The notes below the pieces were generated by a model, which was not told where the DNA came from, ran no database searches, and saw only the letters and a list, made by a program, of their open reading frames with translations. From Podarcis liolepis (Eukaryota): 64,000 nt of DNA. The position numbers were made by a program, and so were the translations under genes. The stretch lies in assembly GCA_965112155.1 (NCBI GenBank), contig OZ218101.1, one strand, 5' to 3'. Below are positions 1,991 to 52,100 of this stretch, piece after piece (position 1 is the first letter of the stretch; every line of letters starts with the position of its first letter).

Positions 1991-4900
1991 GCTTCTCTCT
2001 CAGCTAGTTGTTGCTTTGCTTGCAGGCCAGGTGGCATAAATTTGCTTGCATACGATATTTAAAGAGAAGATAACGCTGAGGCGATTTCCTACACTTGGAT
2101 GTTGCTCTATGCTGTATTCCGATCGCTGCTGCTGCTATTATTATTATTAAAATGTTGCTTGCATTGATATGCTTTTAACAGCAGTCAGGCACCTTTGCTG
2201 AAACTTAAGTATTACTAAATTGAATGGAAACAACCCTAGTGCAAGCTGGGGTGATCCAGGCTTTATTAATTAAATTGTTTTCGTCTCCAAGGAGCCTAGG
2301 GTAGCAAACGCATCAAGAGTAATGCAACCAAAAGTAAAGGCGTTTTAACATTGCTTTCTGGATATATGTATTGAATGGCTGCTAGTCAGGACAGGGAAAT
2401 GAAGCTGATTTGCTAGTAGACAGAACTCCTGATTTTTGACTACTTTGTAAGCCAGGCTTTTTTGTGTGAGACGGGTCCCGCTCAATTCAGCTAAACAACT
2501 GAAAGACATAACACAAATGACTCATCTTTATTGATACTATGGCATTTTTGTAATATAGTTACAGTTAGCTTGTGGGATTCTTCTTTGTAAGTTTTGAAAG
2601 GTGACAAATAGAAACGTCACAATTGAATTTGTGACTCAAAACACTCTGGCGGTGTTAGCCCAGTGTTGTGGAAGTGGTTAGTGAAACTAACCACAACATA
2701 AGCAAACCTGAATACCAAGAGAATGAGACAGGAATAAATAGAACATGAATTGAGTAAACAAACATTTTGAAACAAATTCTGATGGCTTTTATTTCTCAGT
2801 GGTTGGAAACCAGCTGTTCCTGACCATTGTTTGTGGAAGAGCAGGTATACTTCCTGATTCAGAACCAGTGCTTCAAATAAATATAATGCAATCGTGTTAG
2901 AAACAATTGAATCATCTTGATTATCTTGGCAAAATAAGTGCTTAGGGTGGTGCTTTCTTGGCTAAATCTGCTTAACAGCACAACGTATGCTTCTGGACAC
3001 ATTAATTTTGCAACAGCATTGTCCCAGCATTACAATGCTGAAACAAATGCTTAGGATCACACACTAACAATAATCTATACTGCATTGTAGCTATAGCAGG
3101 GATGTTTCTGATACTGACTGACTGATTAACTTGAGTTGGTGTGAACTGGTTGACTGTAGCTCCCAACACGACTAATTGTCTGTCAGGGGTTGAGGTGTGT
3201 AACCACCAGGGAAAGGCACCCTGGATATTTAGTTATTTTACTTATAAAAATATTTCTGTGCAACTATTTCATAAAATATATCAAAGTGGTAATTTTTAAA
3301 AAGAAAGATGAACATGAGACATCAATTAACCATTGTGGAATTAACCATTGCTTCCTGGGGGGGGGGGAGCTGCACCGCTTTGCCAGCAGCCTTCCTCCCT
3401 TCCCTCTTCCTTTTGACAGCTCAGGGGAGGTTTCCCTCCCCCCAGGAAGCAATTGGGGGTTGCGGGCAGGCGGCATGCCGAATGTCACCCCCTCCCCCCC
3501 CCCAATAATTATACCCGGGGTGGACCACCCCCTTTCTCTGCCCCTGCTTCAAGGACAGCAAATTAATAAATATAAATACAGTCACAAAAGCACAAACACA
3601 CATGAGAGTTGGTGTAATGATTCAACTCATAGTCTGGACTGAAGTGAAAACATAGTCTGAACTGAAGAGAGCCACAATCTCCTGGCTTCAGGCCTTTCCC
3701 ATAAGCAACACAGAGATAAAAATATTGACCTGCCTTCTTAAAATCATACAGTTGGAAGGGAAGTCAAAATGCTGTCTAGTTCAACCCCCAGGCACTAGCA
3801 AATGTGCCAAAAGAAAAAAAACTTACAGAGGAGTCTTTCACCATCTAAGCAGCCTGTTCCACTGTCCCAACAGCTCATACCAACAGAGAATCCTTGTTGA
3901 TGTTCATTTAGCATTCCCTTTCTTGTAACTTGAACCCTTTGGTTCTGGTCTTATCCTTTGAAGCAACATAAAACAAATTTCCATCACAGTTATTGGGTTG
4001 TTGGGTACAAAAAGAAGAAATTCTGAAATATGGGAATACCTGTGAGGACTGCAGAGAAAAATTCTAAAGTTGCTATTATACAGTCTTTGTATCAATATTT
4101 GTTGTTTAGTTGTGTCTTACAAATTCTGAATATGTATTTAGTAGTTTATAAAATTCTTGCCTCGTAATCTGTTTTTATTTTGTTTCAGCTTTGGATTTAT
4201 GATGTTTCTTTGGGTTCAGACAGCTGGTAAGTTATGAATGCATTGTTTGCTATGCTCAAATATAAAGCAAACCTTTAAATATCCTGATAATGTGGATGAT
4301 CAATCCTGTCTTTACCCTAAAGTTCAGGGTGGACTGCAGAAATGCAAAGCCACTTTAAAATATACAGATGACTAAATTAACATTTCAGGTAATAATCATA
4401 CTCTTAATACTTGCAGATAAAATCGCTCAGATTTGGGAAGAAGTAGACTCCACCGTGGGAGCAGGGCCAGGGCGGGAGAGTGCTATAGTCCTGTCTAGTC
4501 AAGTTGTGTGGGATCAATTCCAATCTGTTACCTCCGAGGATGTGGACAGGCTGCTTGGACGAGTGAAGCCAACCACCTGTCTCCTGGATCCTTGCCCATC
4601 CTGGCTTATAAAAGCTAGCCGGGAAGGACTGGGCGATGGGCTTCGTGGGGTGGTGAATGCTTCCCTCCGTGAGGGAGCCTTCCCAGACCCGCTGAAAGAG
4701 GCGGTTATTAAACCGCTTCTTAAAAAACCATCTTTAGATGTGGCCACGATGGCCAATTATCGCCTAGTCTCAAATCCTCCATTCTTGGGCAAGGTAATTG
4801 AGCGAGTGGTTGCTGAACAACTCCAGGCACGCCTGGAAGAAGCGGGCCATTTGGATCCCTTCCAGTCGGGATTCAGGCCTCATCATGGGACTGAAACTGC

Positions 4901-7900
4901 CTTGGTCGCACTGGTTGATGATCTCCGGTGGGCTAGGGACAAAGGTGAGAGCTGTTTCCTAGTTCTGCTGGATCTCTCAGTGGCGTTTGATACCATCGAC
5001 CATAACATCCTTCTGGACCGTCTTGAGGGGCTGGGAGCTGGGGGCACTGTCATACAGTGGTTCCGCTCCTTCCTCCTGGGCCGTGTTCAGAAAGTGGTGG
5101 TGGGGAATGAGTGTTCAGACCCCTGGGCTCTCACTTGTGGGGTGCCTCAGGGTTCTGTCCTCTCCCCCATGCTTTTCAACATTTACATGCAGCCACTGGG
5201 AGAGATCATTAGGAGGTTTGGGCTGGGTGTTCATCAGTATGCGGATGATACCCAGCTCTACCTCTCTTTTAAATCAGAACCAGTGAAGGCGGTGAAGGTC
5301 CTGTGTGAGTGTCTGGAAGCGGTTGGAGGATGGGTGGCGGCTAACAGATTGAGGTTGAATCCTGACAAGACAGAAGTACTGTTTTTGGGGGACAGGAGGC
5401 GGGCAGGTGTGGAGGATTCCCTGGTCCTGAATGGGGTAACTGTGCCCCTGAAGGAGTCATTTTGGACTCACAGCTGTCCATGGAGGCACAGGTCAAATCT
5501 GTATCCAGGGCAGCTGTTTACCAGCTCCATCTGGTACGTAGGCTGAGACCCTATCTGCCTGCAGACTGTCTCGCCAGAGTGGTACATGCTCTGGTTATCT
5601 CCCGCTTGGACTACTGCAATGCGCTCTACGTGGGGCTACCTTTGAAGGTGACCCGGAAACTACAACTAATCCAGAAAGCGGCAGCTAGACTGGTGACTGG
5701 GAGCGGCCGCCGAGACCATATAACACCGGTCTTGAAAGACCTACATTGGCTCCCAGTACGTTTCCGAGCACAATTCAAAGTGTTGGTGCTGACCTTTAAA
5801 GCCCTAAACGGCCTCGGTCCAGTATATCTGAAGGAGCGTCTCCTCCCCCATCGTTCTGCCCGGACACTGAGGTCCAGCTCTGAGGGCCTTCTGGCGGTTC
5901 CCTCACTGCGAGAGGCCAAGTTACAGGGAACAAGGCAGAGGGCCTTCTCGGTAGTGGCGCCCGCCCTGTGGAACGCCCTCCCATCAGATGTCAAAGCGAT
6001 AAACATTTACCTGACATTCAGAAGACATCTGAAGGCAGCCCTGTTCAGGGAAGTTTTTAATATGTGACATTTTAGTGTATCTTTCATCTTTGTTGGAAGC
6101 CGCCCAGAGTGGCTGGGGAAACCCAGCCAGATGGGCGGGGTACAAATAATAAATTATTATTATTATTATTATTATACAATTCCCATAATGCTTTCTCTTA
6201 CCTAGGAGAGCTGCCATGCTAGAATCTCCTGTTAATGTTTCCCCCTCAGATAGGTTCTGTGTCTTTAGTATGTGCACTGCTGGAAGATAATCAACATACG
6301 CATCGCCACATTTGCATGTTAGGAAGAGCTGTACCTGTGGCATGGAAGATGTGGCCATGGACTCTTGTGCCTTGTGGCATGGAAGATGTGGCCATGGACT
6401 CTTGGAGAAGAGTCTGAGAAGACCCTGAGACTCAGTTAAGTTTAATAAAGTTAATTCAGACCGAGGTCACCTTTCCATTAGAGTGTATAATATCAAGTGA
6501 ACTCAAACTAGTGAATTAAGTTATTCTCTTCAGTGGGAATGAAAAGAAATGTGGCCCCAGTAAAACTGGATTTTATGGAGACATTCGTAAAAAGCATATG
6601 TTTAATTTCCCATTTTGTCTTTATAGCTAACATATCAGTCACTGGCATAATAGGAAGTACTGTTGAACTGAGATGCGATGAGTTAAATGGCACGTTCATC
6701 TTAAATAACTTTCGAGTAACATGGCGAAAAGAAGGGGAAAGAAACTGCTTTGTAGAAACCTATTATTCTGATGAAGATCTGACTTCATACCGTGAGAAAA
6801 ACCAGTGTGCAGACTTCAGAGACAGGACTCGGTTTAATGTGGAACTGAAGGAGGGCAAGTTTACTCTGCAACTGTTAAGGATCAGTCCTAAAGATGAGTT
6901 CACATATACCTGTGTGGTACTGAAGAAGGATGAAGAAGGAAAATTAAAAGTACATAGAGAAGTAAAAACAAACCTCAAAGTGGCAGGTAAAGCAAATATT
7001 TATAAACCATCAGTGATAAATTCCTGTTCTTTTGCCAAACTTTGTGTATGTCAGAGAATGGCATAGAAGAAAGGTGTGTTCAAGTGTGTTTCTGAGTTAA
7101 CACAGGGCACGGAGGACCAATGGTGTTTTAAACAAGAAAATGTGCTTGGCACACCAGGGCCAATCCAGTCCATTGCCCTGTCCTTCTTTTTCTCCCACTG
7201 AGCAAGGGTCGTAGGAAACTGCCTTGGTCCATCCAGCTGAGTGTTGCCTACACTGACTGGCAGCAGCTCTCCAGGGTTCCAAATAGGAATCTCTCACAAC
7301 CCTACCTTGGAGATGTCTAGGACCTTCTGCATGCTGCAAAGCAGATGCTCTACCGTGGAAGTAGGGCCTTTCCCCTGGCACTGCCGTGTCAGCACCCCTC
7401 CTGTTCATGGAGAGCTTTTTGCAGAGGAGAGCTGAAGGTGTGTAGACCGAAACCTCATTCACCCCAACAGCCCATGAGGTCACAGTCTACTACAACGCTA
7501 CTTCCAATAGTTCTGGTTCAACAGTAAGGCATCAACGTGGCAGTACAGTGGTACCTCAGGTTAAGTACTTAATTCGTTCCGGAGGTCCGTTCTTAACCTG
7601 AAACTGTTCTTAATCTGAAGCACCAATTTAGCTAATGGGGCCTCCTGCTTCCGCTGTGCCGCCGGAGCACAATTTCTGTTCTCATCCTGAAGCAAAGATC
7701 TTAACCTGAAGCACTATTTCTGGGTTAGCGGAGTCTGTAACCTGAAGCGTATGTAACCTGAGGTACCACTGTACAAGTTACTTAGGTGTGCAAACAGGAC
7801 CCTACCCCCACTGCATGTGTTAGTGTAATCCGAGGACTGAAAATCCTTCTCTCAACCTTTTATACTGACAACAGCTCCAGACTGTGTTAATATATGTCTC

Positions 7901-10900
7901 CCTTACTTTCCCCCCCAGCAAATTACAGCACACCAATTCTAACTCACACGCCATCTGGAGAAGAAACAACATTTAATTGCACTTCTAGCCACGGGTACCC
8001 ACAGCCAAAAATTTATTGGGTAAATCATACTGACATCAGCATCTTGAACTCAACTCAACAGTATACTAGAGAGCCTGACGGGACGATCAGTGTTTTCAGT
8101 ACGTTAACAGTTAAAGCAGCTACTGCTATCAAGTTAGAGTGTACAATTGAGAATGAGCAGCTGCATCAAAATCTAACTGCCACCAGTAAGTTGATGTTCT
8201 TCATTTTATCTCCTCTCCAATATTTTTCATGCACAGTGAAATATTTATAGCGAAGAACAAATTTGTCAAGTAGGCTAAAAAAGCAACAACTACAGTGTGA
8301 TTCATGTCCAGAGCCCAAAAAAACTTGACTTTCTGATCATTTGTCAGCTAGAACAAAAGCCTTTGGCCTCTTAAATAGAGAGGAAAGCTTCAAATTTAAA
8401 TTCAGATGCAATAAGAAATCATATAGCTTCCAGTGCAGGCTACTTAAAGCCTTCGAACAAATTATTGGCAGGTTAGCTCATATCAGAAGGTGACATTTGG
8501 CCCACCTACTCCTGCTGCATCTTTGCTATTAAACAGACCTACCTTAAATCATAACTTTTGTTTCAATTCTGCTAGCTGGAATGCCGTTTTTAAAACTCAG
8601 CAGTTGTGAAGTCTGTTATCTGGCTGACCTTTAGGGAAATGGGAGCTGGATGTAAGGCTATAACTCGATCTGGGAGTGTATGTAACTTATTGACTTAGAT
8701 ATGCTTGAGGAAAGTCTCTGGGTTATGGCCAAAGTTTTCTATCCTTTTACATGCAGTGTGCAAATTATTAGGATAAAAGTTCCTTTTGCTAAAAGGTGAT
8801 TCTTAAGTTTCATTGTATTTTAGTAAAATCCAGTTTCTGTGCATGTGTTGTAAAGCATAAAAACACTTAAGATGTGCAGTTTATGTTGTTTGCAGACCTG
8901 TTCTGTCTGAGCCTTTTTTAAAAAAAACCTCTCCTCCTTCTCCCCTTGTCATTGTTTCTATTTAGTTGACACGAGCAGTCCTGAAAATAGCCCCTCGGTT
9001 GATAACAGCCCAAGTAAGACAAAAGGTGTAGTTCTGGCTTCTGTTGCAGCTGTCTCAATAGTCATTCTACTTATTTTGTACATCGGGTGGAAGAAAAGGA
9101 GGACTTCTGTTCTAATGACTTACACTGGTAAGTGAACAGTACACCCAGTTTAACAAGCCCTAAGAAGTAGGAGTAGAGAAGCAGTGGTTCATCCCCAAGA
9201 CTTCCAGAATGGTTAAACTAGCATTTCTGAGGCAGCAATACAGCTGATACTTTGTGTAGACAACCAAAGTAGCTTGTCATGTAGAGTATACATCTTCACC
9301 CAAGGGTGCTTCCTGGGGAATCTCTTCCCATGATTACCAGTAAGGTTTGCCACAGTCCACATTTCAAGTACACACCAGGTTTAGCAAGGCTGAAGTGGAC
9401 CTGCTGTTGAGATCACTGGAAGGGTATGTAGCATTATCTCCTTGAGTGGAGGAAGACAGCTAGTTCCTAATGAAGCGGGACCTATTTTAAGATCTGTTAG
9501 CATGCACCCTAGGCCTCAAACCACTTTCCACTTTCACTCCCACCTACTCCATTTGCATGCCTGCTTGTGAAAACTGAAATGATGCTGTAGTGGCCCATCC
9601 TGCAGCCACAAACTTAGGAAAACAGGCATGTGAAAGGGGAAACTGAGGAGATTAAAAGAAAGACGTGTTGTGCTACACTTATTGTAGTCCATTCTCAAAA
9701 TATGGGGATACTTCAGAGTCGGCCTTCTCAAAGGAAGCCTGCCACATCTTATTTGTTGTCTCCGTTCATCCTGGCTTGCTCTGGTTGCTAGAACATGTAG
9801 GTTTCCTTTTTACAAATAGCCCTTGCTACAATAAGAGCTGAAGAACAAAGTGCTAACTTTGGACAACCTGTGGACAACGTATGGCAAATCTCCCCCCAAA
9901 AAGGGCGAGTTGTGTAATATGCACTTATCATGAAAAGCTACTGGCTAGAAATGCCTTTAGGCTTCCTTCTGTAAACTTCGTTGCTGGTGTAGAGCAGAGG
10001 TTGGGGAAGCTAATGTCTTCCAGATGGTGATGGACTCCCATCAGCTCAAGCCAATGGGACCAGTGGTTAAGGATGTTGTAGTCCAACAGCCACTGGAGGG
10101 GCTCATGGCCCTCATCCCTGGGGTAGTCACTCTGCTTCTAACTCAGGATTCTACTAATGCATAATTCAGGATTCCCATTGGGTCAAAGACAATATGCTCC
10201 CCTCCCAAAAAGACTCTAGCCACACTTGTACTAAAGAGAACTAATAATGTCAATAAAGAGAGCCAATAATGTCACCATGGCCGAGTATTCTTGGCTCCCG
10301 TGCCATTCTTATTGATGTTTATGGCTCAGCTGTATTTATTTGTTTCACTGGAAGAATGGCTTCTGCCTCCAAAACATCATCTGGGTCTACCATATGCTAA
10401 TTGTTACTTAAAACAATGTTGTCATATCAAAGCAATCAGAACAACATTGGCCATAGCAGCTTACTCAAATAAGAAAACCACAAAGCATAGAATCAGTTCC
10501 ACATCTGCAGAGCATCTGATTAATCATAGATGCCTTCCAGGTCATATCCATCCGTAAATTCCTAAACTTGCTTGCCAACAAATGCTGGCAAGGGTTTGTA
10601 GGCAGTAAACCTTCCATTCATCATGTTGGGGTTTTTCATCTTGTGCACTTTCATGTAATCCTGGCTCAACAGACAGTTCCTTCTCTTGGTGTCAACTCAA
10701 ATTAGACTAGCTGTCTCTCTGTAATTCCTATTTAAAATATGCCATTGAACTTCCTTCCCTTTGTGATGTCTTGAGTCCTTGTGTGCCATCTTGAAAGCAG
10801 TTTCAATGGTCCTCATTCTATTTAGAATACACAACCACGTGTAATACAACTCAGTCCAAAAGTTCTACAATCTTTTTTTTCCTATCAATTGGTGTTCATA

Positions 10901-16288: not shown

Positions 16289-17999
16289 TATAGCAATATA
16301 AAATGCAGCATTAAAAACAGACTTAAAACACTACAATCACAACTAGCACAAGTTATGCAGGGTTTTGGATTTGCAGTTCCTCTGTGTTCAATTCTCCTAC
16401 CCCCGGTTCATTAAAAACCCATCAAATGTTTAAATGAATTACGCCTGGCAACCACCTCCACCCAGTTGCAGTCTGTGCCATGGGTTACAACAGTGAAAAC
16501 ACAATCTTTAAAAAGCAGTTTAGAACAACTTAAAATTGCAGAAATAGGATGGGTCCTAAAAAACAATAACTATAAAATGTCAAACTATAGAAGTCCTGCT
16601 TTTGCCCCCCAGGCAAACCAAGTGGCTGTATCAGGAGTGGGGAATTATTTTCCGCCTGAGGGCTTGTGGCAGTTGCATGTCTGTGGTGGGCTGTGCTAGA
16701 GGCCAGAATAGATGGAGCAAATGGGTGTGTCTTATTGCTCCATACAGCCAGCAGGCAGGAGGTTTCTACACACATATACCCTGACTCACTCCATATTTTT
16801 TCATTCAGCAAATGAAGGGGCCTGACCACAGTTCAAAGACACATTCCAAGAGAGCATGAGCAAGCCAGATAGAGGTTGCGGCCATGGAAGAGAGTCCCCA
16901 GAGCTTGTCAGAGAGGACTAGAGGGTTCACGGACAGAAAGTTTGATATTCCTGAGTTACTTGCATACCATGGTAAGTTGCATTTTAACCAACGATCATCT
17001 GTATTCCCTTGATTTTATATTCTAATTCAGTCAACCACTTCTTTTACCCTCGGTGGTCAGAGATTCACTGGACTTCAGGTATAGGAGGAGATTTTATAGC
17101 CACTTGCTCAGTTTATTTCCTAGTTAAATGACAAAGAACTATTCACATTTTGGATCTTTAAGTCAATGATCTCAGAACATCCACCCCCACCCCAATATCC
17201 CCTCAAATTCTAGGTTTATGGGCTTCCCATAGACATTTGGATCTCCACTTTGGGAATAGAATGAACCTTGGGCCTGATGTTGTGATCTTACCAGTATAGT
17301 TAAGGAAAGGTTTCTCAAAAGTGTTTATTTTGATATTATGTATCTCAAACTCTTTAAACACATTTCAGCTCCATTACTCTTAGGTGTCTGATGAATGCTA
17401 AACCTGGTACCAACCATTAGGTTTATAAACATTGGTGAACAAAGCAATATTAAGAAAGAGGAGGCCCTGTCCATATTTCCTTAACACATATATGGTACAT
17501 TTGCATATGCTGTTGACTGGGCTGAAAAATTGTACTTAAAACTTTTTAGGCAGATCAGAAAGGGGCTGGTTTTATTTTCAAACAGTAGTCTCTTTTACAA
17601 TCACCACTTGTCCTGTTTTCTTCATAGTTCATGTAAAGTTTAATGTTGAATTCAACTAAATTTGAAGGCAAGTTCACGCAATCCACTGAAGTTGCCATAC
17701 TTGAGGTTTTCTAAATGTCAGTTCTTTCATCATGTGCTAATGAGTCTGCTCTCATTATTGCACATTTGTTTCACTCATGTCCAAGCCCACTTCTTCTTTT
17801 GTAGGTGACATGCTGACACAAGCAAAATAAGTACATTACATGATGGTTTCACACACAAATGCCAAGCTGTTGGTCCATTGCTTATCAGGTTTGCCCATTG
17901 ATTCAGGCTATCACTTGCCTGAAACGTAATCTAGCATACACAGCAGATTCTTGAAACTAAAGTACACATCAATAACATGAGCAATGTGGATGTTGATTA

Positions 18000-22024: not shown

Positions 22025-24289
22025 TAACTGGTTTGAGGAAAGAGAAATTGACCCCAGCAAGTTACATTTTTAAAAAATAAGAAAAGCTGTGTAAGCTGCT
22101 CAGCATCAGTGAGAATCATATATAACCAGAGTTGATTGCATTCATGTTCTTAAGATTCACAGAACCAGAGGAAGCTATTTATCCATCTAGCCCAGTATTG
22201 CCTGTTCTGACTGGCAACAGTTGCTCTAGGGTCTTAGGTTTTCCCCATCACCTGCTACCTGAGCCTTTTAAGTGGAAATGCCATGGGTGGAACTTTTCTG
22301 CCTAAGTAGCACATTGTACATGTATGTAATGGTGACTGAAAAGCCCGTTCTAACTAGGTCATGATGTAGCTGCTGCTGCAGCCACCAACTATTTTCTAAG
22401 ATGCATCATGTACGTGTATGTAAAAGGAGTTTAAACACGATATTCTACTTTGGAGATACTGGTCTCCTTGATTTGGACTCTGTCCATATATACAGTGGCA
22501 CAATGTGCAAGGTCTACCTGTTTACCAGCCAGTATCTGACTTTAAAGCATGGAAATCCCCAGAAAATTCCCTTAAGCCAGATTGTCAAAAGTTCCTCCAT
22601 GCAATGCACATGGGCAAGTCCCATTCTGTAAAAAATTCCTTTCCAGACAAATTATAATCTCGTATATGGGAACAGTGCCAAGTTGTGGCATTGGCAGCTG
22701 AACTAGTGAAGAGTTTATCCACATAAAACCAATAAATTGCTGTGTCTTGAGTGCTTTCACTTGATTGTGGATATTTCAGAAGTACAGGATCAGGTGCCAC
22801 AGTGCAGGAAATTCCTCTATGCAGTGGGACTCTAGAAATCCATCCCTAGTCTAATAAGTATCATTTTCTTAGAATGGAGCTATTTGCACCATCTTGTGGA
22901 TGTAATTATCCACAACAAACCTGTTAAGTGTGGACCTTGTTCATGTCTACCATATGCACATGACACACAACCTCGGTGGGCAACACTCCCTAGATACATG
23001 AAGGAACAGAGATGTTGCCCACACATATGTTTAATACGGAAGTGGGGGAATACAGTATACAAACGTAGAGCACATTTATGCAACAATGCGTGGAACTGCT
23101 TTGACGAGTGCTTGAACTGGATATTAACAAAGGAAAGTGAGCTCACTATTTCCTGTGACATGTTTAACTATTACCTAACAGACACAGCAACAAATATTGC
23201 TTACTTCTTCTGTAGAGGAAAGATGCTGATTTGTTGAAAACACATAAAACCTGGGAGTCCTTTCCCAGCAGAGCTGCTGCTATCTTGAAATGACAGCTGG
23301 AACCTCTCCCAAATAGGAGGCTGGGACTTAACTTACTCATGAGTAAGGATAATGACCTGCCACAGAAAATAACAGGGTGGAATGCTTATTTAATTGTGGT
23401 CAGGGCAGCATGTTTGAAATGGGAATATTAATCGTTAATGGAACTTTATGATCAGCAAACTGATCCCAGTAGTTGCTGAACTTGTGGGTGGAAATACAAG
23501 AAAGCTAAACAAATCAGAGAAATTTAAAACCATGATGTGACTGAAATCAGCTGGAAAAAGTTTCCTTCAAGGAGGAAAAAAAAAAGTGAGATGTTGGTTA
23601 TGGCAGGGTAAAAACAAAATGTACAATAGGAGTCATCTTCTGTTTCCACAATAATCAGTCCAATTAATCATGAGACAAGATAGTTGGCTGTCAAATTATG
23701 ATTTAAAGCTAACGTACTTGTTAACTTCAGCTAGCCCTGATAAAATAAACCATGGATTCATTCCAACAAAATTGTGAGGACATTTATTTCCTTTATTTAT
23801 TTTATATTATATAACTTAAAACAAATCCTTTTTATTTTGTGGTTTCTTTAGTAGTCTTCTCCCCCAGTTTCAGAATTCTTGATTACATGCTCTCAATGTC
23901 CAGGTATACATTTTCAGAAGGTAGGAATTTATTTGGAAACATATTTTATGCAATTAGAATAGTCTCTGAAAAGGCTTGATAAGCGATTGGAAAGATTTGG
24001 AGAGGTTATGATGTAATTGCTTTTATTATTCCATTATCAATTCAGATTTGTTAAACAGTGACCATCTCCAGAATTAGTTGTCAGATACACTGTATGACGA
24101 TGTGAAGACTGTTGCTGAAATACGGAGGGGATGCATGATTCAACCGGCCTGAGCTGCTTCAGTGCTGAAAATTACACACGCCATTCCAATACAATCGTAA
24201 GCATTCTTAGAGGCAACTCCTGTGCTAGGTCGGCGTTATAAGGACCATATTTCCTAAAGTTATTGTCACTGATATTATGGGTATCCACT

Positions 24290-27200
24290 TCATTTGCCTG
24301 TAAGCTTCAATACATTTTTTACCATGGCTCCAATGCCATCATAAATGTGATGCAATTCTGTTTCACACATAAAGGCTGGGGTAGTTACAACCTTGTGGTT
24401 TGTGTCCACATGGGCCTCATAGAAGACAGTTAAGGAAAACACAGGGACTAAGCCAAGTGACAGAATAAACAGGAATATGCCTTTCTGCCTCACAAACCTT
24501 TATATAGTTATACATAATGACAGCCACCTAAATGTTAGGTGCCTGTCAAGAAACTAACCACACCGTTAGCAAACACCTAAAGTCAAGGAAGCAATCTCTC
24601 AACCTTGTGTGTCACTCTGACCCCACTTAATAACCTGGTAGCTAAGATGGGAGTCCTGCATGCCATTTGGGAATCCCTGAGCTTATGATCAATTTCTGCA
24701 TGGAATTCAACCACAAAGTGGCACTTTCTTATCACTTTTATGTGACTACTCATTTTGTTATTCATGTCTTGAAAAACATAGATGCAGCCATGCAAAATGT
24801 GATGACTAAAAAACAATGTTTTATCATAGTTAAAATTCAAATTTACTTCGTTAGTATTGTGTGACTTTGCATAACTTTAGGATGAATGACAGAATGATTA
24901 AAGGGACAGCAGACTCAGCTCTTTACTGTAAACTTGGTGGCTTCATTCAGGAACAAACCTGGGTGAGCCATGTGGTACAGTCACAAGGAGATCAGAAACT
25001 GCTTACTTTTTAACTAATCACATTATGTCTGACTGTATTTTTAGCCCTATAGGACGCACTTTTTCCCCTCCAAAAATGAAGGGGAAATCTGGGTGTGTCC
25101 TATGGGGCGAATGCAGGCTTTCGCTGAAGCCTGGAGAGCGAGAGGGGTCGGTGCGCACCGACCCCTCTTGCTCTCCAGGCATCAGGAAGACATCCGCAGC
25201 CTAGGCAGCCCTGCAGGAGGTCCTGCAGGGCTGTCTATGCTGCGGATAGCAGCCTGCTGCCCAGCGCGAGGGGCGCCCTGAAGCAGAGCGCCCCTCGCGC
25301 CGGGCAGACATCCACAGCGTGTGGAGCCCTGGAGGAGTTCCCCGCAGGGCTCCCCACGCTGCGGATAGCAGCCTGCTGCCCGGCGCGAGGGGCGCCCTGA
25401 AGCAGAGCGCCCCTCGCGCCGGGCAGACATCCGCAGCGTGGGGAGCCCTGCAGGAGTTCCCCGCAGGGCTCCCCACGCTGCGGATAGCAGCCTGCCACCC
25501 GGCGCGAGGGGCGTCCGGGCAGACATCCGCAGCGTGGGGAGCCCTGCAGGAGTTCCCCGCAGGGCTCCCCACGCTGCGGATAGCAGCCTGCCGCCCGGCG
25601 CGAGGGGCGCCCTGAAGCAGAGCGCCCCTCGCGCCGGGCAGACATCCACAGCGTGGGGAGCCCTGCAGGAGTTCCCCGCAGGGCTCCCCACACTGCGGAT
25701 AGCAGCCTGCCACCCGGTGCGCGAGGCGCAGAGCGCACCGGGCAGACATCGGCCAGCCCCACAAGCCTGGGGGACAGCAGGGAGGCGCAGCGCCACCGTC
25801 CCGCTGTTCCTCAACCTGGTTCGGTTTCCCCGACCTGGTTTTGGGGGGGAAATAAAGGGGAATTTTTTCCCCCTTTATTTCCCCCCCAAAAAAAACTAGG
25901 TGCGTCATATGGGACGGAGCGTCCTATGGGACGAAAAATACGGTAAGTAGCCCCGTCACCAAAGTCACATGGCTCTTCCTGCCTCCTTCACATTAGGTCA
26001 TAACTTTCCAAGTGGGATGCGTGCTCCATGCATGGATAGCATAGTTATTTAGAACCCTGAGAGCTTCCAAAATGTTCCTTGTAGCTGTGCCAGGGAACAG
26101 TGTGTGAGCCTGAGGCTCACTTATTTAACACTAAACCATAATTTAGTATTACATTGGAATGAGGCCGGTTACATTGCTAGAAAGCTTTTCCTGGGTTTAC
26201 AAATTTGTTTCGAGAAATAAAATAAAAAATCAAAAGGCTAACACTGTAACTGAGAATGTGATCTAACATATGTTCAGGAACTGTATAGAACAGTGCTGGG
26301 CAACTTGTGGATCTCAAGATACTGTTGGGACTCCAAACAGCACCAGTAGTCTGGGATGATGGGAATTATAGACCAGGACATCTGGTATTCACATTTAAAA
26401 CAGTCTCTTATGTTAGAATTTTGATAAAAAGTTTAATGGTTTTCCTAAAGCAAATGTTATCCTACTTCTGAATTGAACATACTAAGGCTGAAGTCCTAAC
26501 CCTATTTCCTGGGATTAAGCCCCACTAAATTAATTAAGGCTTACTTCTGAGCAGACATGATTAGTATTGTGCTAGATCATAACTAATTATCAGGGTTTTA
26601 GAAAGCCAAGGAAGATGGACATGCAGTTTATCAGCTAATCCAAATATATCACAGAATGCTTTCCCGAAAGCTCTTCAATTCTGTACAAAAATGTACATCT
26701 CTGATGTCTTATCACACTTAACCTCCTAAACCCATATACACTTAAGGAGAAAGAAAACCCTGTTATTGGTTTCAGTGCAACTTGCTTCCAAACATGTGGC
26801 TCTTTGGGAGTAGCAGGGGGTGTGGGGAGGGGAGAGGAAAAGACACTTAAATTCAGCCTTCATCCAGCAAAAAAGGATATTGTTACTTCTTTAATATGGT
26901 GTTTTCCACCCAGTGCTTTAATGGCCCCAGCAGTTCCAGCGTAAGGCCACTTACCACCTTCTTCTTCTTCATGTCCCACAGTGACTTCAGTACCAGGAAG
27001 AACCTTTGCAGCCAAAACGGGTGAAATGCAGCACAGACTGAAAAAAAAGGTGGACAGAAAACCTTCACTTAGGTTCCTCCATTGATGATTTACTGTATTT
27101 ACACCTCCCTGTTCCTTTGCTTATAAAGATTTGGCACACCCTCAAAAATAAAAAAAGTTACTAAACTGAGTAAAAGCCTTATTAACCATTACACAGCAAT

Positions 27201-49100: not shown

Positions 49101-52100
49101 TGTACAACTGGAACACCAAAACATAACAGTTAACATCATTGCACAACTGAAATGAGCCTTAAGCAAATGAGCTAAACAAACATTTGATGTCACTATGCTC
49201 AACTGAGAGTCGAAAGGATACTTAGCTCAAAAGACTGCAATTCTCTAAGAATAAAATGTTCTCTCATGAAACTGTAAAACAGAATCTTGTAAGCTACTTG
49301 ACTTACAAGGAAAAAAATGACCACAGTTCAGCGAAAAAGCATCTCCCTTGCAACATAGTCATGCAGATCCCCAATTTAATCTCTCATGTCTCCAGATAAG
49401 AGCTGTGAAAAGCTCCTGCCTAAAAGCCTGGAAACTCACTACCAGTCAGTATAGACAAGACTGAGCCTGATAGATTAATAGCTAGATTCAGTATGAGCCA
49501 GCTTCCTGTGTACCTAATTACAAAGACATTATCTTTCAATTTGAACTTATTTGAGAGAAAGCAAGCTTGGATGTGAGATGTCTAATAAACTGAATTTTTA
49601 GACCAAATATAAAGCCTTGTTGAGATCCTACTTTATCTTACGTTTATTGTACACTTTTGAGCTCCGCTGTATACATACATTCTAAATATATACATTAATT
49701 AACTGCCAATGTCCAAAATCCGTAACAGGCCCCTTCTGGACTTAGATATATGGGAACATAATATATCTGAGGTGCTGATTGCTGGCTTATTTCTGGGCAC
49801 CCAGGATATCAGTTCTGGGCACTTTTTTTAAAGAACTGCCACTGCCCCCCAGATAAGCAATCTGCAGAAGACCCCTACAGTATGTAAACACCTTGAGGAA
49901 AGTAGACTATATACAGCCTTTCATTGACTTGTGCCATATAATTATCCAAAAGCAAAGTACACTAACCATAAAAACCAATGCAATATATATAGAAGAGGTA
50001 CATACATCTAGACTGTTTCCTTCAAAAAAACAGGCAACAATGGCATCCTTATGACCTCCCAATGCATAATAAATCAGATTGGCCCAGCGCTCTGCTCCAA
50101 ACACCCACGTTGACATATCTTTGCTTCCTACTGCAAAACATCTAGAATAAAAGAATCGTGGTTAGAACATCTCAAAAAGTACATCATAGTGGAGATGTCA
50201 ACAAGCAGTTTATACTGCTCAACTCTCTAGTGAGAGTGAGAGGCTTTGCAAAGATAGCAAGGAATGAAGAGACAGATTTGGATCCAAAGGTTCACTGCCA
50301 CTGGAAGGAAATCATGGGATTCCAAACCACAGTTCCCAGTTCCCGCTATCTGAGTGGATAGTCTCTCCAGTTTATACTGGGAAAAGGCATTCGGTCAATC
50401 CCTTACTGCTATTGGCCAAAGTGTGTACATGTGGATGTACAAAACAGAGGTAATGGAAATAGATCAGTGGATGCTTAATGATATTAGAAACTGATTTAAG
50501 TAAACTTTTATAGACAGTGAATTCCGAGAAATACATTATATTTATTTGAAAGAGGAGAAAATTAAGGAGTCATTTTTTATATATTTCAACAAACCTTTTT
50601 TAAAGAATGGAATTATTGTATGAAGCGATGGAAATTATTGCATTACAAATCTTAAGTTGGATTCAGAGATCCATGTGAGGATTTCTGCTCAATAAATGGG
50701 ATGTTTCCAGGTCTAATTCACAGAAGAGTGGGGAAGGCAATTTTCACTGGTCCTTCTCTTCTACAATACTCTGCACCTATACACCCCATCTACTCTGGAG
50801 GGTTGGGGAACCTCTGGAACAGTGTAAGAAGTGGCAGCAGAGAGCTGTAAGAGGAACAGATTTAAAAAAGTGTGTCCCTCTTTCTATTCAGGGAAACTTG
50901 GGCTTGACTGCAGCACCTTCTGTGTAGAGAAAGAATCTTTCCATTTGCAGACAGGTTCTGCTGGACCCAACCCTCTGTTTACTTTAATAAAAATTGTTTA
51001 TTAACTCAGGAGGTAACAAAATCTCTATTAACAAATGAAAAATGTGGACAATGGAGAATCCTGAAACAATAACCTGAACTTTTAGCATTACTGTTAAGGG
51101 AATTTATGAGGTGAGGCACTACCTAAATACACTCTCCTAAAAAGAGCAATGCAAGATTTTCTTTTCTTTTCTTTTCTTTTCTTTTTGCAATGCAAGATTT
51201 TCAAAATTATCAGCAGATACAATCAACCCAATTCGCATTGGCTTTCAATGTATTTGCTCATTTTCTATGTTGCCTTGGTAAACTGCATATATTAAAACTT
51301 ACTTAGAATCATCTGTCCAATCAATGCATGTTGTTTCGTCATATGCACCATAGTAAGTTGTGTCAAGGACAAACGCATTAAATTCTCGCTTTTTTCCTGG
51401 GGCATGGTACATCAGAGCAACGTTCTCCTTTGTGACCACAAATTTCCTGTTTAACATAATATGAAAAATGAACTTAACATACATAATTATTCAGCAGAGA
51501 AATAAAAATGAACAAGATAACACCAAGCGCATGTAATCAGATAATGCAGTAGAACTGTGCAAGTTTCCAAGGTTTATACATCTACACACATACATAAACA
51601 TAAGTGAAAGTCTGTATTTACAGCTAGATAGTCATTTGTAATTATTTTGTCACCAGACACTTTTGTATAAGAAGCATATTGATTTTGGGTGTATAAAGGT
51701 GATCCAGTAAAAAGGGTCACGTTTCCTACTGTGTCTATTACTTCCCAACTCCTATGATAAGCAAAATTCATTTCAACAACTGGTACTACTATCACTTATA
51801 CATACAAAAAAAGCACAAAACCAGGAAGTTTCTCTTACTTTCCATTTGGGGAAAAACAGACACTGTGTACAGGTTTCTGAAAATGGAACTGATGAATCAC
51901 AGATTTACTGATCAAGCTGACAAGTAAGGCAGCTCCCTCTGTTGGAAAAAGAACAAATAGATTGAGCATCATTTATATTCAGCCCAATTTCAAACTCAAA
52001 TTTCTAAATGAAATAAAAGAGTCATGTTATTCAAGGGACTATAATAAAAGCAACATTTTTTGCCTTGATTGTAGAATAAAATATATAAAAGATAGTTATA

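Follow-up and report, generated by a model that had tools for sequence, protein, structure and literature searches.

An intron of the minor-spliceosome type with AT-AT ends in the lizard GATD3 gene, probably derived from an AT-AC intron

Introduction

The last intron of GATD3 has already been catalogued in mammals. Human GATD3A/B and mouse D10Jhu81e are listed as minor-intron genes in the consulted part of one supplement (PMC6717393), and in that of another the human GATD3A/GATD3B intron (chr21:44143362-44144820) is given as U12 AT-AC, with the boundaries GTC|ATATCC...CAC|GAAGCT (PMC8280824). According to the sections of the latter study used here, depletion of CENATAC raises the PSI of this human intron from 0.07 to 0.42, ZRSR2 mutants show a rise from 0.07 to 0.35, and AT-AN introns are handled as a single class.

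Introns of the U12 type that end in AT at both sides are a known and rare class, and in plants they are all but missing. The portion of PMC1557818 available to us counts six of them in human and six in mouse, together with four switches between AT-AC and AT-AT, and AT-AT ranks second among the non-canonical minor termini of animals in the corresponding portion of PMC10639083. The human AT-AT introns lie in UBR3, ERCC5, KCMF1, SMC3, IK, SRSF12, TCTN1 and HNRNPLL, and therefore belong to the same subtype as the intron described here but to other host genes; human GATD3 is absent from this set. The AT-AT intron of ERCC5 is CENATAC-dependent, with a basal PSI of 0.07, in the part of PMC8280824 that treats it. 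The human-mouse switches (ERCC5, Gpaa1, Zc3hdc6 and Slc9a8; Sheth 2006, Table 3) likewise consist of a single-base substitution at the final intron position. The GATD3 switch differs from them in that raw reads support it and that the two species compared are human and a lacertid-like lizard.

Our literature search on the C21orf33/GATD3A U12 intron, on intron retention and on AT-AT introns of lizards and squamates returned no paper on the lizard intron, although catalogues may list it. GATD3 had no match in the accessible portions of the supplements of PMC11347168 and PMC7367187, and those of the articles PMC2831892 and PMC7367187 held nothing specific to the GATD3 intron. Since human and mouse catalogues already contain this intron, and since both the AT-AT subtype and AC/AT switches are known, the finding is less surprising than the earlier note on this DNA had held.

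The GATD3 gene and its last intron

Within the window, by which we mean the whole stretch of 64,000 nucleotides that was analysed, GATD3 is encoded on the minus strand (32470 to 24290 for the coding sequence). The exon model places coding exons 1-5 at 32470-32348, 31259-31207, 30978-30865, 30476-30357 and 28288-28196, and introns 1-5 are all GT-AG. Exon 6 (27037-26881) ends in GAA GTA ACA in phase 0 and is supported by tblastn, by the exon model and by RNA read ends that run on into 26881. The coding part of exon 7 (24418-24290), which runs from EAHVD to LTGK and the stop codon, is supported by sequence, tblastn and RNA coverage, and this coverage continues through the 3' UTR to about 23800. 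When exons 6 and 7 are joined at an AT-AT junction, the seven-exon coding sequence specifies 262 amino acids, and the database protein P0121 agrees with it at 262 of 262 positions; the AT-AT junction is already used in database protein models. By protein comparison, the closest named homologues come from lacertid lizards.

Intron 6 occupies 2,462 nucleotides (26880-24419, minus strand), a delimitation that rests on sequence, on the exon model and on junction reads. It opens with ATATCCTTT, in longer context ATATCCTTTTTTG from 26880, directly after the GAA GTA ACA of exon 6 at 26881. It closes with TTTTCCTTAAC TGTCTTCTAT, that is with CTAT at its 3' end, the last T being position 24419, and exon 7 begins with GAG GCC CAT from 24418; no AC stands at this boundary. 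The intron's U12-type 5' splice site ATATCCTTT (26880-26872) is predicted to form a duplex of 8 bp with the genome's U11, at the 5' end of this RNA, and the branch sequence TTCCTTAAC (24437-24429), with its presumed branch A at 24430 or 24431, is predicted to form a duplex with the genome's U12. Rough expectations from base composition are 2.6e-5 for finding ATATCCTT by chance at a fixed exon end, and 1.1e-4 for finding TTCCTTAAC by chance within 20 nt of the acceptor. The 3' splice site AT (24420-24419), whose use is documented by junction reads and whose letters are documented by DNA contigs, lies 11 nt from the presumed branch A. An in-frame AG within the Glu codon (24417-24416), without listed use, follows 14 nt from the same A. 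The acceptor stretch (24300-24500) has a single match in the genome.

Searches of the genome for U11 and U12 gave three matches to U11 and two to U12 above the Rfam cut-off, and the recognition regions of these RNAs are, by prediction, complementary to the donor and to the branch motif of the intron. An RTATCCTT 5' splice site, a branch sequence close to the 3' end, minor snRNAs and a conserved position place the intron in the U12 type; genomic termini AT and AT and an unambiguous mRNA junction place it in the AT-AT subtype. Other exact U12-like motifs occur in the 64-kb window at 49221 (-), 11187 (-), 20406 (+), 57110 (+), 59295 (+), 17307 (-), 17477 (+) and 42237 (+). When translated, the one at 49221 showed no GATD3-like link. 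Two TTCCTTAAC motifs, one on each strand and separated by about 170 nt (17289-17307 and 17477-17485), lie away from known exons and are probably due to chance.

The junction used in RNA

Raw RNA reads join exon 6 exactly to position 24418 in all three runs examined, which were picked by species label (29 reads in X23, 16 in X24 and 30 in X21, 75 in total), with a consensus agreement of 0.99-1 at the junction; none of the runs listed as containing the stretch was recorded as RNA. In addition, a 60-nt junction contig of run X18, at a depth of 309, ends at 24418; that X18 is an RNA run is a guess. Because a shift of one base in either direction would alter the read sequence, the assignment to AT-AT is unambiguous. 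The earlier note had read the intron as U12-type with apparent AT-AT ends that would keep the Glu of EAHVD, and DNA and RNA reads now show these ends to be true, its proposed check on junction reads having turned out in its favour in three of three raw runs.

The same note considered that both tandem acceptors may serve, the AT ending at 24419 and the AG ending at 24416, and would thus yield isoforms with and without the Glu. This is improbable. The AG is in frame and just 3 nt further on, 3' site choice in U12 introns is described as error-prone in the part of PMC3584512 that we used, and AT-AG U12 introns exist according to that of PMC1557818. Against these points, 75 reads end at 24418 and none is listed at 24415: among the loose read ends listed for the three raw RNA runs, at a threshold of 3 reads per run, none corresponds to a junction at the downstream AG, and use of this AG up to roughly 7-11% per run could fall below that threshold. 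Moreover, the residue is missing in none of the cleanly joined homologues. The tandem-acceptor idea is not supported.

Removal of the intron by the major spliceosome, either as an AT-AN intron of the U2 type or with the help of cryptic GT-AG sites, has to be weighed as well. The earlier note had stated that there is no GT donor at the boundary. A GT is in fact present 6 nt upstream of the donor (GAA|GTAACA, at 26886), and a strong consensus-like U2 donor (GTG|GTAAGT) is found at 26954 on the minus strand, inside exon 6 at the GKW codons. From the reads at the acceptor side, neither 26886 nor 26954 was seen joined to exon 7, and the use of a GT donor was rejected, as reads join 26881 to 24418. 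In other species, gene models built ab initio impose GT-AG junctions at this place, which would favour cryptic sites along with the two GTs themselves; the perfect U12 donor and branch motifs and the exact joining of 26881 to 24418 speak against them. So does the human orthologue, which is affected by CENATAC and ZRSR2, whereas depletion of CENATAC left major AT-AC introns without a response (PMC8280824, in the sections covered). Altogether, we regard removal by the major spliceosome as very improbable. Should minor splicing fail, the GTG|GTAAGT at 26954 could serve as a cryptic donor.

As a rough measure, the ratio of unspliced to spliced depth at intron 6 is 0.056, 0.075, 0.119 and 0.034, or 3-12%. 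This resembles the control PSI of 0.04-0.07 given for the human AT-AC orthologue in the accessible part of PMC8280824.

The terminal T in DNA

Could the terminal T be an assembly error or a private variant, the species being truly AT-AC? An AC end is found in human and in the metagenomic locus L068 described below, and contig data mask rare alleles: Logan contigs lose rare variants, so that a low-frequency AC allele could escape. Yet no letter other than that of the assembly occurs at 24419-24420 in the four of four DNA-type runs examined, which come from four studies and three coded organisms (X1 from organism A, X13 from C, X3 and X9 from B), and the contigs that cover this position do carry ordinary differences elsewhere. 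The unspliced contig of X18 (24389-24770) agrees, as it differs only at 24481 and 24507 and not at 24419. For organism B, RNA and DNA were sequenced from different samples, and X18 alone carries both the spliced and the unspliced form. Eight of the 24 listed runs were mapped, over 23700-25020, and the AT at the 5' end is therefore a reading of the assembly. The T thus passed the check for an AC-to-AT error that the earlier note had called for; an assembly error at 24419 is very unlikely, and the reading as a whole, private variant included, retains hardly any probability. Intron 6 of GATD3 is a real, read-verified addition to the known rare AT-AT class of U12 introns.

Conservation of the intron

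The lizard intron shares with that of human GATD3A/B its codon position, its phase, its AT donor, a U12 branch motif whose distance to the intron end is 10-11 nt, and a G as first exon base. It differs in ending in AT rather than AC, in a better match of the branch sequence (TTCCTTAAC versus TTCCGTAAC in human), in its greater length and in the transposon that it contains.

Among 120 homologous proteins (P0001-P0120), many GATD3 models are mis-predicted at this place, with ISF... read-through, VFSLT..YEAHVD insertions or truncated C-termini. In all 29 models that read through the donor the first residues are Ile-Ser, and in none are they Val-Ser, which indicates that lizards, birds, fish and mammals share an AT donor; at the other end such models cannot separate AC from AT, as Tyr and His codons fit both. 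The residue at the Glu position is kept in 77 of 77 cleanly joined homologues (E in 71, D in 3, Q in 2 and C in 1).

In metagenome contigs, a pattern scan found 115 loci, and in two of them (L068 and L116) the encoded last exon is GATD3-like, with an identity of about 70%. The acceptor of L068 ends in AC|GAA. That of L116 (305-316, minus strand of the locus) reads CCTTAAC...GCAA|GAAG and ends in AA, or in AG one base further on. The exchange of a human C for a lizard T is likely a change from AC to AT; its date and direction rest solely on human and L068.

A model for splicing at AT

A mechanism can be proposed in which the donor and branch sequences define the intron, and its 3' end would be set mainly by the distance from the branch A. 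The last base would then be only loosely constrained, and the spacing, together with the A at the 5' end, would select AT at 11 nt over AG at 14 nt. In the part of PMC3584512 that we used, the optimum between branch and 3' end is 11-13 nt and AT-AG is disfavoured; by our own count AT falls inside this range and AG outside it, and the counting in that study may differ. We infer from motif and orthology that the intron would depend on the minor spliceosome in the lizard. Very probably, then, this is an ancient last intron of the minor type whose final base is T where human has C, and which is spliced exactly at AT, likely by the U11/U12 minor spliceosome.

Transposon and antisense RNA at the locus

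The 0.9-kb hairpin-rich transposon that had been noticed inside the intron was found again. Analysis of repeats and of genomic copies delimits a non-autonomous DNA transposon of 911 bp (25033-25943), with terminal inverted repeats of about 29 bp and a hairpin-rich unit of 119 bp. Its 29-nt arms (25029-25057 and 25919-25947) are 83% complementary, and the unit, which is GC-rich and forms many hairpins, is repeated 4.8 times. The left end has 1,111 candidate copies in the genome, and the 40 that were scored are 95-100% identical. Other copies are flanked by TA on the left in 8 of 9 cases and on the right in all 6 of those in which that end was located, which conforms to a TA duplication, whereas the intronic copy has GA on its left flank and TA on its right. 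The short terminal inverted repeats, the TA flanks and the many near-identical copies are like those of Tc1/mariner-type non-autonomous elements; the internal GC-rich array of 119-bp hairpin units and the GA flank of the intronic copy are unlike them. The CCGTATTT ends presumably recall the Tc2 group. The element lies 614 nt from the acceptor and more than 900 nt from the donor, no tie between it and the splice ends was shown, and it is likely a passenger.

In one run (X23), five reads join 24196 to 26982 on the plus strand and define a GT-AG intron (24197-26981; C|GTAAGC ... TTCTTCATGTCCCACAG|T) in a spliced antisense RNA, which overlaps the 3' UTR and exon 6 of GATD3 and skips the U12 intron. 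The opposite-strand depth at 24015-24239 is 0.2-6.4 in X23 and zero in X24. Exons encoding an Ig V-set domain (6632-7000) and a CD80-like C2-set domain (7891-8190) lie on the plus strand in a gene placed tail-to-tail with GATD3, which is likely ICOSLG, judging by human synteny. The antisense RNA may originate from this gene. Upstream of the Ig exons, reverse-transcriptase-like open frames (4359-6064, plus strand) resemble by eye a LINE-type element.

The AT end might, alternatively, have been selected as a weaker site that tunes the output of GATD3, in which the antisense RNA or the transposon might also take part. Non-canonical termini are often spliced less well (PMC3584512, in the part covered) and the antisense spliced RNA does overlap the locus, but retention of 3-12% is about that of the human AT-AC intron (4-7%), the antisense junction amounts to five reads of one run, and the transposon is more than 600 nt from either splice site. 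We therefore consider such tuning quite unlikely, and retain the reading of an ancient minor-type intron spliced at its terminal AT.

CpG decay as a possible route to AT-AT

The ancestral AC|G junction, as seen in human and in L068, contains a CpG. The hypermutability of CpG is well established, and deamination of a methylated C at AC|G would yield AT|G in one near-neutral step. In supplement file 1 of PMC8280824, as far as it was tallied, the first exon base is G in 5 of 8 human U12 AT-AT introns (and A in the other three) versus 7 of 44 AT-AC introns (Fisher p=0.011), the latter being a hand count over the first 45 rows of a table sorted by splicing effect, 44 after removal of one duplicate acceptor. 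If the same introns are assumed to be concerned, the genes that are AT-AC in human and AT-AT in mouse in the accessible part of PMC1557818 (Table 3) have AC|G in SLC9A8 and GPAA1, and AC|A in ZC3H6. This small sample suggests CpG decay as a route to AT-AT; the excess of G could alternatively reflect selection on the +1 base. Among the titles that our literature search listed, none concerned CpG deamination as a route to U12 AT-AT introns.

We therefore advance, tentatively and at somewhat less than even chances, the idea that CpG decay at AC|G is the main origin of AT-AT minor introns. GATD3 would then offer a natural allelic series, with AC in human and L068, AT in the lizard and possibly AA in L116, in which the minor spliceosome chooses the 3' end by how far it lies from the branch point and passes over an in-frame AG three bases further on.

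Conclusion

The case of GATD3 leaves the known picture of U12 splicing unchanged. It shows why gene predictors mis-model the C-terminus of GATD3 in many vertebrates. A read-verified, natural AT-AT minor intron beside a competing AG also lends itself readily to tests of 3' end choice by the minor spliceosome.
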